Source: Escherichia phage BYEP01
Reading direction: 5' to 3' (one strand)
Sequence record: OR757453.1
Length of the DNA: 64,000 nt
Numbering within the stretch: position 1 is the stretch's first letter; each line of letters starts with the position of its first letter. Shown in pieces: positions 24,922 to 50,303 of this stretch. Both the position numbers and the translations under genes were made by a program. The notes below the pieces were generated by a model, which saw only the letters and a program-made list of their open reading frames with translations, did no database searches and was not told the origin of the DNA.

Positions 24922-25851
24922 ATGTCTATTGCAGATTTAAAATCCCGTTTGATTAAAGCTTCCACTTCTAAAATGACTGCTGAACTGACTACATCTAAAT
25001 TCTTTAATGAAAAGGATGTAATTCGTACAAAAATCCCAATGCTTAATATCGCTATTTCTGGCGCGATTGATGGTGGTATGCAGTCTGGTTTAACCATTTT
25101 TGCAGGTCCTTCTAAACACTTTAAATCAAATATGTCTTTGACTATGGTTGCGGCGTATTTGAACAAATATCCTGACGCGGTTTGTCTATTTTATGATAGC
25201 GAATTTGGTATTACTCCAGCTTATTTGCGGTCCATGGGAGTTGACCCTGAACGAGTAATTCATACGCCAATTCAGTCAGTTGAACAACTGAAAATTGATA
25301 TGGTGAATCAGCTTGAAGCTATTGAGCGTGGTGAAAAAGTTATTGTATTCATCGACTCAATCGGTAATATGGCTTCTAAGAAAGAAACGGAAGATGCCTT
25401 GAATGAAAAATCTGTGGCAGATATGACTCGTGCTAAATCACTGAAGTCATTATTCCGTATTGTTACTCCTTATTTTAGCATTAAAAATATTCCATGTGTT
25501 GCGGTTAACCATACAATTGAAACAATTGAAATGTTTAGTAAAACCGTGATGACAGGTGGTTGTGTTATTGCTGGTACTAAAATCCAGATGTCCGATGGTT
25601 CTACTAAAGCAGTTGAAGATATTCGTCCAGGTGAGCGTGTTAAAACCATGGTCGGTGATAATGAAGTAACTTATGTTTGGGACCCCGAAACTCTGGCTGA
25701 AGGTACTCCTGAATGTTTCGAAATTGAATTCGAAGACGGTTATAAAGTAACTACTTCAGATACTCACAAGTTCCTGGTAATGGTTAAAGACATTCCAACT
25801 TGGGTTGAAGCTAAAGATTTAGTAGCTGGAATGGATTGTGTTGTAAGGTAA
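24922..25851 (+). CDS. uvsX: UvsX recombinase N-terminal extein (213 aa) fused to split-intein N-fragment (96 aa)
   Basis: N-part recognised as T4 UvsX up to ...FSKTVMTGG, then CVIAGTKIQM... intein block A and TTSDTHKF block B; TAA stop 25849-25851. Confidence 0.85.
   Translation: MSIADLKSRLIKASTSKMTAELTTSKFFNEKDVIRTKIPMLNIAISGAIDGGMQSGLTIFAGPSKHFKSNMSLTMVAAYLNKYPDAVCLFYDSEFGITPAYLRSMGVDPERVIHTPIQSVEQLKIDMVNQLEAIERGEKVIVFIDSIGNMASKKETEDALNEKSVADMTRAKSLKSLFRIVTPYFSIKNIPCVAVNHTIETIEMFSKTVMTGGCVIAGTKIQMSDGSTKAVEDIRPGERVKTMVGDNEVTYVWDPETLAEGTPECFEIEFEDGYKVTTSDTHKFLVMVKDIPTWVEAKDLVAGMDCVVR
25561..25848 (+). other. split intein N-terminal fragment (IntN)
   Basis: Begins with Cys codon 25561 after extein Gly; contains TxxH block B. 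Confidence 0.8.
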
Positions 25852-25854
25852 TAA

Positions 25855-25897
25855 ATATGGGTACCGGACTAATGTATATTTTTGAGGTACCCATATG
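25855..25897 (+). promoter_or_regulatory. 11-bp perfect stem-loop sequestering SD and start codon of the GIY-YIG gene
   Basis: atatgggtacc (25855-25865) pairs with ggtacccatat (25886-25896); ATG 25895. Confidence 0.6.
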
Positions 25898-26617
25898 AAT
25901 TTTGTCTATAAAATTGTGTTCAACGATAGAATTAAAAACGGCACTCCGCCATATTACTACATAGGGAGCAAGACAAATGCTTCTTATGTAGATGGTAAGA
26001 TTATTGACGCCCACGGTCGTGAGTACTATGGCTCATCGAGATATCCCGGATATCATGATTTTATCAATAATGTTACTGTTGAAATATTGGAGCAATATGA
26101 TGATATTAAACACACTAAACTGCTAGAGCGCGAAAATTTCTATCAGAAACAAGTAAATGTTAAAACAAATCCAGATTATTTTAATTTAGATTATGCTTGT
26201 GGGCATAATTCATATGCTAATGCTGATTTTGCATCATACAAGCATTATATAACAGGTAAATGTATTCGTCTTGAAAGAAACCATCCGCTTGTTAAATCTG
26301 GTGTGTATGTTGGCGTCACAAAAGGCGTGAAATCTTCTGATGAACACCGTAAGCACATATCAGAAGGTATTACCGGAGAAAACAATGGGTTCTATGGTAA
26401 GAAACACACTAAAGAAACAATTAATAAAATATCAGAAAAAGCAAAGAAAAGATTAAAGCATTCCCATCCTAGACAAAAAGGTGTTATCATAAACGGTATT
26501 GAATACCGGGGCGTCAGACCTGCTGCAAGAGCGTTGGGAATTAATCCTAACACAATTATCAACAAAATTAAAGCTAATATAAAAGGATGGGCTTATGCAG
26601 TAGATGCACGCGGTTAA
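25895..26617 (+). CDS. freestanding GIY-YIG homing endonuclease, 240 aa, between intein halves
   Basis: VYKIVFND...YYYIGSK GIY-YIG motif; NGFYGKKH NUMOD-like repeat; C-terminal HTH (AARALGIN). Confidence 0.8.
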   Translation: MNFVYKIVFNDRIKNGTPPYYYIGSKTNASYVDGKIIDAHGREYYGSSRYPGYHDFINNVTVEILEQYDDIKHTKLLERENFYQKQVNVKTNPDYFNLDYACGHNSYANADFASYKHYITGKCIRLERNHPLVKSGVYVGVTKGVKSSDEHRKHISEGITGENNGFYGKKHTKETINKISEKAKKRLKHSHPRQKGVIINGIEYRGVRPAARALGINPNTIINKIKANIKGWAYAVDARG

Positions 26618-26725
26618 GGCATTCGAAGATATGGTAAAAGAATTTGGAATGAACATGACAATCAAGATTATGCTTTCATGAAATATGTATATTGAAACTA
26701 GCTACTACGAAACACAAGGTAAAGT

Positions 26726-26830
26726 ATGAAAATTAAATCTGTTAAATCTGTTGGTAAAAAAGAAGTCTATGATTTGTCTGTTGCTGACGTCGAGCATTAT
26801 GTTTTAGAAAATGGTATCGTTACACACAAC
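26726..26830 (+). other. split intein C-terminal fragment (IntC)
   Basis: 35 aa ending HN followed by +1 Thr; resembles DnaE-type IntC. Confidence 0.8.
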
Positions 26831-27373
26831 ACAGGCGTAATGTATTCGGCTGATACTGTATTCATTATCGGTAAACGTCAGATTAAAGATGGTTCTGATC
26901 TTCAGGGGTATCAATTTGTTCTAAATGTAGAAAAATCTCGTACCGTTAAAGAAAAAAGTAAATTCTTTATTGATGTTAAATTTGACGGTGGTATCGATCC
27001 TTATTCTGGATTATTAGATATGGCTCTTGAATTAGGATTTGTGGTAAAACCTAAAAATGGCTGGTATGCTCGTGAATTTCTTGACGAAGAAACCGGCGAG
27101 ATGATTCGCGAAGAAAAATCTTGGCGTGCAAAAGATACCAATTGCACTACATTCTGGGGTCCTTTATTTAAGCATCAACCATTCCGAGATGCTATTAAAC
27201 GCGCTTATCAGTTAGGTGCTATTGATAGTAATGAAATTGTTGAAGCTGAAGTTGATGAATTAATTAACTCAAAGGTTGAAAAATTTAAATCTCCAGAAAG
27301 TAAAAGTAAATCAGCAGCTGATTTAGAAACTGACCTAGATCAGTTAAGTGATATGGAAGAATTTAATGAATAA
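26726..27373 (+). CDS. uvsX: split-intein C-fragment (35 aa) fused to UvsX C-terminal extein (180 aa)
   Basis: MKIKSVKSVGKKEVYDLSVADVEHYVLENGIVTHN then TGVMYSADTVFIIGK... matching T4 UvsX C-terminus; own SD aagg. Confidence 0.85.
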   Translation: MKIKSVKSVGKKEVYDLSVADVEHYVLENGIVTHNTGVMYSADTVFIIGKRQIKDGSDLQGYQFVLNVEKSRTVKEKSKFFIDVKFDGGIDPYSGLLDMALELGFVVKPKNGWYAREFLDEETGEMIREEKSWRAKDTNCTTFWGPLFKHQPFRDAIKRAYQLGAIDSNEIVEAEVDELINSKVEKFKSPESKSKSAADLETDLDQLSDMEEFNE

Positions 27374-31404: not shown

Positions 31405-31452
31405 GTGTCGTCCTCCTTTAAATTAATATTTATCGCAAATTTTACAAAATTT

Positions 31453-31482
31453 GTTTACTTTCTCAGCTTGTTATGGTATTAT
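31453..31482 (+). promoter_or_regulatory. T4-type early promoter
   Basis: gtttac 31453-31458, tattat 31477-31482. Confidence 0.5.
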
Positions 31483-31507
31483 AAAATAAACTGCTGAGGA
31501 TAATATA

Positions 31508-32847
<1,340 letters not shown>

Positions 32848-43878: not shown

Positions 43879-43924
43879 ATGATTACCGGAGTATAATATT
43901 CCCGAAACCAAACGAGGATAAGTG

Positions 43925-45742
43925 ATGATTAAGAATGAAATTAAAATTCTGAGCGATATTGAACATATCAAAAAGCGTAGCGGCATGTACATTGGCTCTT
44001 CAGCTAATGAAATGCATGAGCGCTTTCTGTTTGGTAAATGGGAAAGTGTTCAGTATGTACCTGGTCTTGTTAAGCTTATTGATGAAATTATCGATAACTC
44101 AGTAGATGAAGGTATTCGTACTAAGTTTAAATTCGCAAATAAAATTAATGTTACCATTAAAAATAATCAGGTAACAGTTGAAGATAACGGTCGTGGTATT
44201 CCACAAGCGATGGTTAAAACACCTACCGGTGAAGAAATTCCTGGTCCTGTTGCTGCCTGGACTATTCCAAAAGCAGGTGGTAACTTTGGTGATGATAAAG
44301 AACGCGTCACCGGCGGTATGAATGGTGTTGGTTCTAGTTTAACTAACATTTTTTCTGTGATGTTTGTCGGTGAAACTGGCGACGGTCAAAATAATATTGT
44401 AGTTCGTTGTTCAAATGGCATGGAAAATAAATCATGGGAAACTATTCCTGGAAAATGGAAAGGAACTCGCGTTACTTTCATTCCTGATTTTATGTCATTT
44501 GAAACTAATGAGCTATCTCAGGTTTATCTTGACATTACACTGGATCGTCTCCAGACACTTGCAGTAGTTTATCCTGATATTCAATTTACCTTTAATGGTA
44601 AAAAGGTTCAGGGTAATTTTAAGAAATATGCACGTCAATATGATGAACATGCTATCGTTCAAGAACAAGAAAACTGTTCTATTGCGGTTGGTCGTTCGCC
44701 GGATGGTTTTCGTCAATTAACATACGTCAATAACATTCATACTAAGAATGGTGGCCATCACATTGACTGTGTTATGGATGATATTTGTGAAGACCTTATT
44801 CCACAAATCAAACGTAAATTTAAAATTGACGTAACTAAAGCACGTGTTAAAGAATGTTTGACTATCGTTATGTTTGTTCGTGATATGAAAAACATGCGAT
44901 TTGATTCTCAAACTAAAGAACGACTTACTTCTCCTTTTGGTGAAATTCGTAGTCATATTCAGCTTGATGCTAAAAAGATTTCACGTGCTATTTTAAATAA
45001 TGAAGCAATTTTAATGCCAATTATTGAAGCTGCCTTGGCTCGTAAATTGGCGGCAGAAAAAGCAGCAGAAACTAAAGCAGCTAAAAAGGCTTCTAAAGCT
45101 AAGGTTCATAAACATATTAAAGCGAATCTTTGCGGTAAAGATGCTGATACTACTCTTTTCTTGACTGAGGGTGATTCTGCTATCGGATATCTTATTGATG
45201 TTCGTGATAAAGAACTTCATGGTGGTTATCCATTGCGCGGTAAAGTTCTTAATAGCTGGGGTATGTCATATGCTGATATGCTTAAAAACAAAGAACTGTT
45301 TGATATTTGCGCAATCACTGGATTAGTTCTTGGCGAAAAGGCAGAGAATACGAACTATCGTAATATTGCAATTATGACTGACGCAGATCACGACGGTCTT
45401 GGAAGTATCTATCCGGCTTTGCTTGCTTTCTTTAGTAATTGGCCTGAATTGTTTGAACAAGGACGTATTCGCTTTGTTAAAACGCCTGTAATTATTGCAC
45501 AAATTGGCAAAACTCAAAAATGGTTTTATACTGTAGCTGAGTATGAAGAAGCTAAAGATGCTCTACCTAAGCATAGTATTCGATACATCAAGGGATTGGG
45601 CTCACTTCAGCGGGATGAATATAAAGAAATGATTCAAAACCCTGTGTACGACGTAGTTAAACTTCCTGAAAATTGGAAAGAACTATTTGAAATGCTCATG
45701 GGTAACGACCCTGAACTCCGTAAAGATTGGATGCTAGGATAA
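43925..45742 (+). CDS. 39: DNA topoisomerase II large subunit gp39, unsplit form (605 aa, covers T4 gp39 plus gp60)
   Basis: GyrB-like ATPase and TOPRIM regions in one ORF; ATG 43925 with SD gagga. Confidence 0.85.
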   Translation: MIKNEIKILSDIEHIKKRSGMYIGSSANEMHERFLFGKWESVQYVPGLVKLIDEIIDNSVDEGIRTKFKFANKINVTIKNNQVTVEDNGRGIPQAMVKTPTGEEIPGPVAAWTIPKAGGNFGDDKERVTGGMNGVGSSLTNIFSVMFVGETGDGQNNIVVRCSNGMENKSWETIPGKWKGTRVTFIPDFMSFETNELSQVYLDITLDRLQTLAVVYPDIQFTFNGKKVQGNFKKYARQYDEHAIVQEQENCSIAVGRSPDGFRQLTYVNNIHTKNGGHHIDCVMDDICEDLIPQIKRKFKIDVTKARVKECLTIVMFVRDMKNMRFDSQTKERLTSPFGEIRSHIQLDAKKISRAILNNEAILMPIIEAALARKLAAEKAAETKAAKKASKAKVHKHIKANLCGKDADTTLFLTEGDSAIGYLIDVRDKELHGGYPLRGKVLNSWGMSYADMLKNKELFDICAITGLVLGEKAENTNYRNIAIMTDADHDGLGSIYPALLAFFSNWPELFEQGRIRFVKTPVIIAQIGKTQKWFYTVAEYEEAKDALPKHSIRYIKGLGSLQRDEYKEMIQNPVYDVVKLPENWKELFEMLMGNDPELRKDWMLG

Positions 45743-46539
45743 TGAATTATCGTAAAATTTATGATAAACTTATCGCTGCGGCTAAAAACCGCAGCACTAT
45801 TCCTAATTATACTGAAACTCACCATATTTTGCCTAAATCTATGGGCGGGAGTAATGCTAAATCAAATCTAGTTAAAATGACCCCTAGAGAGCATTTTATC
45901 GCCCATTTATTGCTTTATAAAATTCATAAGAACCGTTCTATGCTTATGGCTATTAGAGCTTTTTACATGGGAGCTAGAAATTCTAGAGATTATGATTGGC
46001 TTAAACAAGAATTCTCTAAAGAGCACTCTAGATTTATGAAAGAATGGATTGCTAAAAATGGCAACCCATTTAAAGGTAAAAAACATACTAAAGCAACAAG
46101 AGAATTAATGTCACATATTGCTTCACAACGTATAGGCGAATTAAATCCATTTTATGGTAAAACTCATACGCAAGAAGCAATAGATAAAATAATACAGGCT
46201 AACAAGTTATCTTGGGAGAATGGGCGAAAAGCACCTGTAAAAACAAAAGAACACCAGGATAAAATAACTAAATCAAGAATGGAAACATTTAAAACAAAAG
46301 GATTTAAACCATACACTCCTAGGTCAGAAGAAACTAAAGCTAAGACTAGAGAGTTGTATAAATCTAAATATGAAAGAAGGCCTATAAGAATCACAAGTGT
46401 AAAAACAGGTGAAACTATTGATTTTAACTATCTTTATGAATTAAGGGAGTATTTAGATATAGGGTCTTCTAATATATTGAAAGCATTAAATAATCCTAAC
46501 AGAACCTGCAAAGGTTATAAAATGTGTTGGATGTCCTAA
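45742..46539 (+). CDS. freestanding HNH homing endonuclease, 265 aa
   Basis: ETHHILPKSMGGSNAKSNLVKMTPREHFIAH HNH motif; NUMOD repeats; TAATG overlap with gene 39 stop. Confidence 0.75.
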   Translation: MNYRKIYDKLIAAAKNRSTIPNYTETHHILPKSMGGSNAKSNLVKMTPREHFIAHLLLYKIHKNRSMLMAIRAFYMGARNSRDYDWLKQEFSKEHSRFMKEWIAKNGNPFKGKKHTKATRELMSHIASQRIGELNPFYGKTHTQEAIDKIIQANKLSWENGRKAPVKTKEHQDKITKSRMETFKTKGFKPYTPRSEETKAKTRELYKSKYERRPIRITSVKTGETIDFNYLYELREYLDIGSSNILKALNNPNRTCKGYKMCWMS

Positions 46540-46710: not shown

Positions 46711-46914
46711 ATGAAATCATATAGAGTAAATTTAGAACTTTTTGATAAAGCAGTTCATCGAGAATATAGAATCATTCAACGCTTTTTCGATATGGGAGAA
46801 GCCGAAGAGTTTAAAAACCGCTTTAAGGATATTAGAGATAAAATTCAATCCGACACTGCAACTAAAGACGAACTACTAGAAGTTGCTGAAGTTATTAAGC
46901 GTAATATGAATTAA
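46711..46914 (+). CDS. hypothetical protein, 67 aa (rIIA.1 position)
   Basis: ORF with SD gagga. Confidence 0.5.
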
Positions 46915-46924
46915 TGAGGAAATT

Positions 46925-49102
46925 ATGATTATCACCACTGAAAAAGAAACAATTCTTGGTAATGGTTCTAAATCAAAAGCATTTAGCATCACAGCATCTC
47001 CTAAAGTATTTAAAATTCTATCATCTGATTTGTATACAAACAAGATTCGCGCAGTAGTCCGTGAATTGATTACTAATATGATTGATGCCCATGCTCTTAA
47101 TGGAAATCCTGAAAAATTTATCATTCAAGTTCCTGGACGTTTAGATCCACGATTTGTTTGCCGAGATTTTGGTCCGGGTATGAGTGATTTTGATATTCAG
47201 GGTGATGATAATTCTCCTGGTTTGTATAATTCATACTTCAGTTCATCTAAGGCTGAATCTAACGATTTCATTGGCGGATTTGGTTTAGGTTCTAAATCTC
47301 CGTTTAGTTATACTGATACATTTAGTATTACTTCATATCATAAAGGTGAAATTCGTGGTTATGTAGCTTACATGGATGGTGACGGTCCACAGATTAAACC
47401 TACATTCGTAAAAGAAATGGGTCCAAATGATAAAACTGGTATTGAAATCGTAGTTCCAGTTGAAGAAAAAGACTTTAGAAACTTTGCTTATGAAGTTTCT
47501 TATATCATGCGACCATTCAAAGATTTGGCTATCATTAATGGTCTTGACCGCGAAATTGATTATTTTCCGGATTTTGATGACTATTACGGTGTAAATCCAG
47601 AAAGATACTGGCCAGATCGCGGTGGATTATATGCTATCTATGGTGGTATTGTTTATCCTATCGATGGCGTTATTAGAGACCGTAACTGGTTAAGCATCCG
47701 CAATGAAGTGAATTACATTAAGTTTCCAATGGGTTCACTTGATATTGCCCCATCGCGTGAGGCTCTTTCATTAGATGATCGTACTCGTAAAAATATTATT
47801 GAGCGTGTTAAAGAGCTCAGTGAGCAGGCATTTAATGAAGATGTAAAACGATTTAAAGAATCTACATCTCCTCGTCATACATATCGCGAATTAATGAAGA
47901 TGGGATATTCTGCTCGAGATTATATGATTAGTAATTCAGTCAAATTCACGACTAAAAATCTGTCATATAAGAAGATGCAAAGCATGTTTGAACCTGACAG
48001 TAAGTTATGCAATGCAGGGGTTGTGTATGAAGTAAATCTTGACCCTCGACTGAAACGCATTAAGCAAAGCCATGAAACTTCAGCCGTTGCATCAAGTTAT
48101 CGTCTGTTTGGTATTAATACGACAAAAATTAATATTGTTATTGATAATACTAAAAATCGTGTTAATATTGTCCGTGGATTAGCACGTGCATTAGATGATA
48201 GCGAATTTAATAACACCTTAAATATTCATCACAATGAGCGGCTTCTGTTTATTAATCCAGAAGTAGAATCGCAGATTGATTTGCTTCCTGATATTATGGC
48301 AATGTTTGAAAGTGATGAAGTTAACATTCATTATTTGTCAGAAATCGAAGCTTTAGTTAAAAGTTATATTCCAAAGGCAGTAAAAAGTACAGCTCCTCGT
48401 CCTAAAACTGCTACTGCATTTAAGTTTGAAATTAAAGACGGGCGCTGGGAAAAAGAGGAATTGTTTACACTTACGTCAGAAGCAGATGAAATTACTGGTT
48501 ATGTAGCATACATGCATCGTTCTGATATTTTCTCTATGGATGGTACTACATCGCTTTGTCATCCATCTACGAATATTTTGATTCGTATGGCTAATCTTAT
48601 TGGCATTAATGAATTTTATGTTATTCGTCCACTTTTACAGAAAAAGGTAAAAGAACTTGGTCAGTGCCAATGTATTTTTGAAACTTTGCGTGATTTATAT
48701 GTAGATGCTTTTGATGATGTAGATTATGATAAGTATGTAGGTTATTCAAGTTCAGCTAAACGATATATTGATAAAATTATCAAGTATCCTGAGTTAGATT
48801 TTATGATGAAGTACTTCAGTGTAGATGAAGTTTCTGAAGAATATACACGACTCGCTAATATGGTTAGTTCATTACAGGGTGTATATTTTAATGGTGGAAA
48901 AGGTACCATTGGTCATGACATCTGGACAGTAACTAATCTTTTTGAAACACTATCATATAATGCTTCAAAAAACAGTGATAAAATGGTTGCTGAGTTTACC
49001 AAGAAATTCCGTATTGTTTCCGACTTCATCGGTTATCGCAATTCTTTAAGTGATGATGAAGTTTCCCAAATCGCTAAAACTATGAAGGCCCTTGCGGCCT
49101 AA
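46925..49102 (+). CDS. rIIA: rIIA protein, 725 aa
   Basis: N-terminal HATPase-like region; length 725 aa as T4 rIIA. Confidence 0.9.
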
Positions 49103-49113
49103 TAAGGAAAATT

Positions 49114-50053
49114 ATGTACAATATTAAATGCCTGACCAAAAACGAACAAGCTGAAATTGTCAAACTGTATTCAAGTGGTAATTACACCCAACAGGAATTG
49201 GCTGATTGGCAAGGTGTATCGGTGGACACAATCCGTCGTGTTTTGAAAAATGCTGAAGAAGCTGAGCGCTCCAAAGTTACCATTAGCGGTGACATTACAG
49301 TTACAGTTAAGAGCGATGCAGCTATTGCTCCAGTTGCTAAATCTGACATTATTTGGAATGCATCTAAAAAATTCATTTCAATTACTGTTGACGGTGTAAC
49401 TTATAACGCAACTCCTAATACTCATTCAAACTTCCAAGAAATTCTTAATCTGCTTGTTGCAGATAAATTGGAAGAAGCGGCGCAAAAAATTAACGTTCGT
49501 CGCGCTGTTGAAAAATATATTTCCGGTGATGTTCGAATTGAAGGTGGAAGCTTGTTCTATCAAAATATTGAATTGCGGTCTGGTTTAGTTGATCGTATTC
49601 TCGATTCGATGGAAAAAGGTGAAAACTTTGAATTTTATTTTCCGTTCCTGGAAAATCTGTTAGAAAACCCAAGCCAAAAAGCGGTAATCTCGACTCTTTG
49701 ATTTCTTGGTAGCAAACGATATTGAAATTACAGAAGACGGTTACTTCTATGCTTGGAAAGTAGTTCGCAGTAATTACTTTGACTGCCATTCAAATACTTT
49801 TGATAACAGTCCTGGTAAAGTAGTTAAAATGCCACGTACTCGTGTGAATGACGATGATACACAAACTTGTTCTCGTGGTCTGCATGTGTGTTCTAAATCT
49901 TATATTCGTCACTTTGGCAGTTCAACCAGCCGAGTTGTAAAAGTTAAAGTACATCCTCGCGATGTAGTATCAATTCCGATTGATTACAACGATGCTAAAA
50001 TGCGTACCTGCCAATACGAAGTAGTTGAAGACGTTACTGAACAATTCAAATAA
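49114..50053 (+). pseudogene. rIIB: rIIB interrupted by a +1 frameshift (fragments 49114..49701 and 49706..50053)
   Basis: Two adjacent frames together span 940 nt, one more than the 939 nt needed for 312-aa rIIB; junction confined to 49688-49699 with TTT run at 49697-49699. Confidence 0.6.
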
Positions 50054-50067
50054 GGGCTTCGGCCCTT
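50052..50067 (+). other. stem-loop at rIIB 3' end
   Basis: aagggcttcggccctt hairpin without T tract. Confidence 0.35.
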
Positions 50068-50081
50068 AACTAAGGAAAATT

Positions 50082-50276: not shown

Positions 50277-50280
50277 AATA

Positions 50281-50303
50281 AAGGGCTTCGGCCCTTTTGT
50301 TTT
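50281..50303 (+). terminator. rho-independent terminator
   Basis: aagggcttcggccctt hairpin plus TTGTTTT. Confidence 0.6.

Follow-up and report, generated by a model that had tools for sequence, protein, structure and literature searches.

The rIIB locus of Escherichia phage BYEP01 (sequence record OR757453.1) raises the question of whether the gene is broken in the phage itself or in its record alone, and what the lesion would mean for the RIIB protein. The original prediction proposed that a +1 frameshift truncates RIIB at 195 residues, and that it reflects either a real rII mutation or a homopolymer sequencing error. Here the locus is analysed within a 64,000-nucleotide stretch of the record, referred to as the window, in whose coordinates all positions are given.

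The rIIB locus and its neighbours

The window is a Tequatrovirus (T4-like) segment, reversed in orientation relative to the T4 map, in which the gene order is rIIA-rIIB-denB.1-denB, the synteny expected of an RIIB gene. rIIA (46925-49102, plus strand) is intact, comprises 725 codons and equals T4 rIIA in length (2178 nt); a tblastn scan of the window revealed no frame split in this gene. The rIIB locus (49114-50053) spans 940 nt, and 939 nt were aligned in each of the best 60 of 624 phage records when the 940 nt were used as a megablast query. The locus is therefore, as had been proposed, exactly one nucleotide longer than the gene requires.

The consequence of this additional nucleotide is that the single ORF of about 312 codons expected for RIIB is split into two, encoding 195 and 115 aa. 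The 5' ORF (49114-49701, plus strand) contains rIIB codons 1-191, after which four codons are read out of frame (ISTL) before a stop is reached, so that frame 0 comprises 195 codons and ends …QKAVISTL*. The premature TGA (49699-49701, plus strand), evident from both the ORF list and the sequence, lies where the original prediction had placed it, with the 195-residue product ending …KAVISTL* as described. The remainder of rIIB, codons 192-312 (49688-50053, plus strand), is in the +1 frame, which was also anticipated, and holds the best-conserved part of the protein. Within it the 3' ORF (49706-50053, plus strand), which encodes 115 aa, starts at a TTG, begins VANDIEITEDGYFYAWKVV and runs to the normal C-terminus; TTG 49706 is the sole possible start for a +1-frame rIIB ORF. 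The narrow overlap of the two frames was likewise upheld. Both are open only at 49688-49698 because the last upstream stop in the +1 frame is a TAA at 49685-49687 (plus strand), a codon that was created by the insertion and forms the 5' limit of the doubly open interval.

The identity of the gene is not affected by the split. The repaired product matches phrog_609 over residues 1-312 (E=3.8e-111) and is 98% identical to RIIB of phage a15, while Pfam PF26926 (Phage_T4_rIIB) is a precomputed assignment on the rIIB homologues. The rIIB of BYEP01 is a disrupted gene copy. The two halves are present in the protein collection in the form described here: the 195-aa ORF, including its ISTL tail, is identical to WPK17760.1, a 'hypothetical protein [Escherichia phage BYEP01]', while the sequence of the 115-aa C-terminal ORF is exactly that of WPK17761.1, the accession that follows it in this phage. 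These two 'hypothetical proteins' of the GenBank record should be flagged as disrupted rIIB.

Several features of the neighbourhood can be described alongside the locus. A terminator-like hairpin, GGGCTTCGGCCC (50051-50068, plus strand), is situated directly 3' of the rIIB stop codon, and denB.1 is flanked by two near-identical copies of it (50051-50068 and 50280-50297), which are terminator-like on both strands; among relatives the lengths of these hairpins differ by single G/C bases. On the other side of the operon, gene 39 consists of one uninterrupted ORF of 606 codons (43922-45742, plus strand), the gene 39/60 split and the 50-nt translational bypass of T4 being absent from the window. 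The 3' end of gene 39 is overlapped by a 270-aa HNH/NUMOD3 homing endonuclease ORF (45727-46539, plus strand), after which rIIA.1 is found at 46711-46914.

Placement of the extra base

Alignment to reference rIIB genes, which had been proposed as a check of the frameshift, confirmed a one-base insertion and located it at 49686/49687. A multiple alignment with IME339, Nami and EcNP1 contained a single gap, and the gap fell at the same place in pairwise BLAST comparisons with T4, sutha, five IMG/VR contigs and six Logan/ENA contigs. The window reads GCGGTAATCTCG and every other aligned sequence reads GCGGTATCTCG, such that GGTATC of the relatives is GGTAATC in BYEP01 (GTA-TC to GTA-A-TC). As all alignments place the gap here, the inserted base is one of the two A's at 49686-49687 (plus strand), a position at which all relatives have a single A.

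This placement differs from that of the original prediction, in which the frame was restored by removing one T from the TTT run at 49697-49699. The arithmetic of that repair is sound, as deletion of a T does yield …AVISTLDFLVANDIE…, but the alignments place the extra base at the AA. The two repairs also differ in the protein that they generate. Removal of an A gives …QKAVSRLFDFLVANDIE… (AVSRLFDFLV), whereas removal of a T gives …QKAVISTLDFLVANDIE…, with ISTL in place of SRLF. The conservation of these residues was assessed in 117 full-length RIIB homologues with identities down to about 50%. V191, R193, L194, D196, F197 and L198 are invariant (117/117), and residue 195 is phenylalanine in 108 of the proteins and tyrosine in the other 9. 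Indeed residues 193-204 are the top-ranking 12-residue conservation block of RIIB in this set, with a mean column conservation of 0.94. The TTT-run repair, in which ISTL replaces three conserved residues (R193, L194 and F195), does not hold as the original sequence. Judged from this conservation, only the removal of an A fits the RIIB family; removal of a T restores the frame but not the gene. A frame-restoring repair such as the dropped T can thus mislead; here alignment and residue conservation put the lesion 11 nt further upstream.

Genuine mutation, error or recoding

Swine wastewater, enriched on E. coli BYEC01, was the source of BYEP01; the phage was plaque-purified through at least three rounds, and was sequenced on the Illumina NovaSeq 6000 platform (PE150) and assembled with SPAdes (PMC12951479). 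The genome is given as 169,509 bp in that paper, and the contig of WPK17760.1 as 169,215 bp in the protein collection, a small and unexplained discrepancy that counts slightly against the reading of a real mutation.

The allele was sought in other sequences by a megablast search of 50,697 phage records with an 80-nt query centred on the insertion. Among the 489 records that matched, the identical allele was not found, the best identity being 97.5%. In exact searches the 28-mer that contains the insertion, AAAGCGGTAATCTCGACTCTTTGATTTC, was absent from viral, genome and metagenome contig collections, and the wild-type 27-mer was present in five IMG/VR viral contigs; neither the exact 195-aa product nor the exact rIIA product had an entry in the contig index. 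Within the collections searched the BYEP01 rIIB allele thus appears to be new, as no other sequence carries the insertion, and it went unremarked by its depositors. It should be emphasized that such uniqueness is equally expected from a recent mutation and from an error.

It could be argued that rIIB in the phage is of the normal 939 nt and that the extra A, an artefact of sequencing, assembly or record editing, exists only in the consensus. In line with this proposal the allele is absent from the 489 phage records and the three contig collections, error-broken rIIB genes do exist in public assemblies, and the depositors annotated two 'hypothetical proteins' with no discussion of rII; to judge from this annotation, and from the fact that rII is not mentioned in the BYEP01 paper (PMC12951479), nobody appears to have looked at the site manually. 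Against the proposal are the sequencing platform and assembler, NovaSeq with SPAdes, and the nature of the site. The choice between a real mutant and an error, as originally framed, was apt, but 'homopolymer sequencing error' is not the fitting alternative because a single A became AA; a site of this kind is not a run of about four or more bases, and a homopolymer error was rejected on these grounds.

The remainder of the window is also at odds with an artefact. T4, sutha, N2 and IME339 together supplied 214 ORFs of 90 aa or longer, and when these were compared with the window by tblastn, rIIB was the only gene with a 1-nt frame split; uvsX was the one other split gene, as a result of a 1.2-kb insertion. 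A second scan used 628 ORFs of 40-89 aa, and the three adjacent frame splits that it returned were rejected as genes, being shadow ORFs of the non-coding strand at intergenic indels. The 64-kb window contains 428 homopolymer runs of at least 5 bases, including 67 of at least 6, and in the two ORF scans none of these was disturbed within a gene; no conserved ORF in the window other than rIIB contains a frameshift, which is a second respect in which the data do not resemble homopolymer error.

The split uvsX (24922-27373, plus strand) is an observation in its own right. The gene is divided by a canonical naturally split intein together with a free-standing NUMOD3 homing endonuclease gene. Its 5' ORF (24922-25851, plus strand) encodes UvsX residues 1-213 and a 96-aa N-intein (Cys1, TxxH), the endonuclease gene (25895-26617, plus strand) lies between the uvsX halves, and the 3' ORF (26726-27373, plus strand) supplies a C-intein of 35 aa with HN at its end, then Thr+1 and a C-extein of 180 aa. 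Splicing in silico yields a UvsX of 393 aa, in which 354 of 391 residues match T4 UvsX. Of 493 related phage records, 8 share the fractured arrangement, including those of SYGD1, SP21535, pSe_SNUABM_01, HY03, ELT1 and RPN226, and their annotation of its parts does not go beyond hypothetical protein, recombinase or endonuclease; uvsX is not among the genes listed in the 'Fractured genes' paper (Dassa et al. 2009). The fractured uvsX may merit a separate finding. In BLAST comparisons the stretch 25560-26830, which is the uvsX intein and homing endonuclease insert, is not covered by T4, sutha or N2, and the same is true of about 540 nt at 31440-31980.

Breaks that do resemble errors provide a further comparison. 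In three Logan contigs (L013, L014 and L017) rIIB contains two 1-nt deletions each, nearly all of them within runs of four to six A's (A4-A6); L013 also has a fragmented rIIA. These breaks look like sequencing errors, and in being multiple and located in A-runs they are unlike the lesion of BYEP01. In addition, rIIB frameshift and nonsense mutants are known to arise readily and to be selected as escapers of the gasdermin/CARD defence, at the cost of sensitivity to RexAB (PMC10312443). The Illumina platform, the non-homopolymer site and the lack of any other conserved-ORF frameshift in the window clearly favour a real mutation. We infer that the insertion is carried by the phage DNA and not by the record alone; there is a good likelihood that the mutation is real rather than artefactual, and an artefact, while deserving consideration, is unlikely. 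BYEP01 is thus probably a wastewater Tequatrovirus with a genuine loss-of-function allele of rIIB that arose by spontaneous duplication of an A.

Truncation of rIIB is not unusual among public sequences: fragments from vB_Eco_EH2, T4_ev240 and further records fall into the same protein clusters. Two contigs from independent sequencing runs, L015 (SRR5150002) and L016 (SRR19497814), have in common a different 1-nt rIIB deletion, TTGGAAAAC to TTGAAAAC. It lies at the equivalent of window position 49662, 24 nt upstream of the BYEP01 lesion, and results in a 198-aa product and the same 115-aa C-terminal ORF. The deletion may represent an rIIB-null allele that circulates or that has arisen more than once.

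One phenotypic observation bears on whether the phage is rII-null. [quoted passage not shown] That the plaques are small, and not of the large r type, is a point against a null allele. The point is a weak one, since the r plaque type of rII mutants is limited to certain hosts, E. coli B among them.

A mutation could be real and yet fall short of abolishing RIIB. The premature stop lies in the context ACU CUU UGA U, and the sequence CTT TGA T (49696-49702, plus strand) is a chance match to the CUU UGA core of the heptamer at the prfB +1 frameshift site, CUU UGA CNN (PMC5289835). Ribosomes might slip by +1 on the CUU of CUU-UGA (49696-49701), or reinitiate at TTG 49706, and so confer partial rII function. 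A computed slip from CUU to UUU does restore the frame and yields a 312-aa RIIB with ISTL for SRLF, the TTG lies 4 nt past the stop, and low compensatory frameshifting in combination with a 'savior' indel has been described as a concept (PMC5009743). The likeness to prfB (RF2), where the motif is CUU UGA C, is nevertheless confined to the identical core and to a slip that restores the frame. No Shine-Dalgarno-like stimulator is located 3 nt upstream, where the sequence is GTAATCTCGACT. The base after the UGA is U, which favours termination, while prfB has C and so a weak terminator (PMC5289835). The shift site was made by the mutation itself and is not conserved. The slip product would, moreover, contain R193S, L194T and F195L, substitutions at positions that are invariant or nearly so in the 117 homologues, and TTG 49706, which has no ribosome-binding site, would give rise to a C-terminal fragment only. 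Unstimulated CUU UGA sequences shift at a low level, of the order of percent. Residual function is rated as very unlikely because a stimulator is lacking, the +4 base is U, and invariant or near-invariant residues would be damaged. A particular form of it, in which the cut in RIIB would evade defences while rare slippage or reinitiation left a trace of activity sufficient against Rex-type exclusion, a savior indel in effect, is highly improbable.

The chance CUU UGA motif is also all that would speak for a programmed event, in which rIIB is normally expressed through a +1 frameshift. At this site the gene is uninterrupted (939 nt) in the 489 related records and in all the other contigs, the interrupted arrangement occurring in none of these records and in no contig of the three collections. 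Stimulatory elements are lacking, and the recoded peptide would destroy invariant residues. As conservation is wholly lacking, programmed recoding is effectively excluded.

Consequences for RIIB and for the phage

The lesion consists of an A inserted at 49686/49687, in codon 192 of 312, and a premature TGA downstream, as is typical of a null frameshift. The region of RIIB that would be affected was assessed with an AlphaFold2 prediction for an RIIB of 98% identity, constructed with 44 homologues (mean pLDDT 78.6). In the model a three-helix HTH (residues 9-50) forms the N-terminal part; a disordered linker, an α/β middle region and helices at residues 157-167, 172-182 and 188-200 come next, and a β-rich domain predicted with confidence (residues 211-306, block pLDDT 74-95) makes up the C-terminal part. 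In this model the frameshift, at residue 192, falls at the start of helix 188-200, and because of its position the 195-aa product would lack both this helix and the entire C-terminal domain. The PHROG RIIB families of distant phages align only to the C-terminal portion of the protein, from residue 160, 166 or 191 to 310. Family alignments and the model together indicate that the region predicted to be lost is the best-conserved part of RIIB, and that the HTH and the middle region would be retained. In a PDB sequence search and a Foldseek search with the AlphaFold2 model only the N-terminal HTH was matched, and weakly; neither search returned a solved relative of the C-terminal domain.

The course of events that we propose would begin when a single A at codon 191/192 was duplicated spontaneously (GTA TCT to GTA ATC T), which would shift the frame and cause translation to end at the TGA four codons past the duplication. 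As the lesion lies outside the dispensable N-terminal segment, the allele is expected, by analogy with known rII mutants, to be null and to confer rII-minus behaviour. Mutants in rII are harmless on hosts that lack Rex-type exclusion and lethal on lambda lysogens. The rIIB-null phage would accordingly be fit on hosts without RexAB-type exclusion and excluded by lambda lysogens, and may escape defences that sense RIIB. The allele may have become fixed through a bottleneck or selection during the enrichment and three plaque purifications, or may already have been present in the environmental population.

How the allele relates to known rII variation can be considered by comparison with three well-described cases. 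The classical frameshift mutants in T4 rIIB are reportedly those of Benzer and of Crick, Barnett, Brenner and Watts-Tobin (1961). Frameshift alleles of T4 rIIB were sequenced by Shinedling et al. 1987, as cited in bioRxiv 10.1101/2025.10.21.683753. As in the classical mutants, a one-base insertion in BYEP01 leads to a premature stop a few codons on, and the operon order, rIIA-rIIB-denB.1-denB, and the gene length are likewise those of T4. In contrast to these mutants BYEP01 is not a laboratory stock but a wastewater isolate proposed for therapy, and the position of its lesion (codon 191/192, A to AA) occurs in no other public sequence searched. The BYEP01 allele is an ordinary rII frameshift mutant of the textbook type, and it carries little scientific weight, given that the triplet code was established on this very class of mutants, those with frameshifts in rIIB.

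The second case is provided by the T6 escapers of the gasdermin/CARD defences of Lysobacter and Pedobacter, a defence that is triggered by RIIB and evaded by its loss (PMC10312443). In these phages, as in BYEP01, RIIB is lost through frameshift or nonsense mutation, and the same trade-off is predicted for BYEP01, in which escape from defences that sense RIIB comes at the price of sensitivity to RexAB. All of the T6 escapers were selected on a known defence system, and five of the six alleles are early frameshifts (PMC10312443), whereas the BYEP01 frameshift occurs two-thirds of the way into rIIB. The third case is the contingency loci of the T-even phages, exemplified by an A6 run in rIIA at which a reversible ±1 frameshift switches Rex-resistance and lysis timing (bioRxiv 10.1101/2025.10.21.683753). 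The BYEP01 lesion resembles these in being a ±1 frameshift in an rII gene. The contingency loci, however, are runs of at least six bases, and as the BYEP01 site is a single A that became AA, slippage or reversion at high frequency is not expected.

The rIIB genotype bears on the host range of BYEP01 because of the predicted exclusion by RexAB and the possible escape from defence. BYEP01 has been proposed for therapy, and an rII-null genotype predicts that the phage would be excluded by hosts that harbour lambda-like prophages encoding RexAB; the same genotype may enable the phage to escape defences that sense RIIB.
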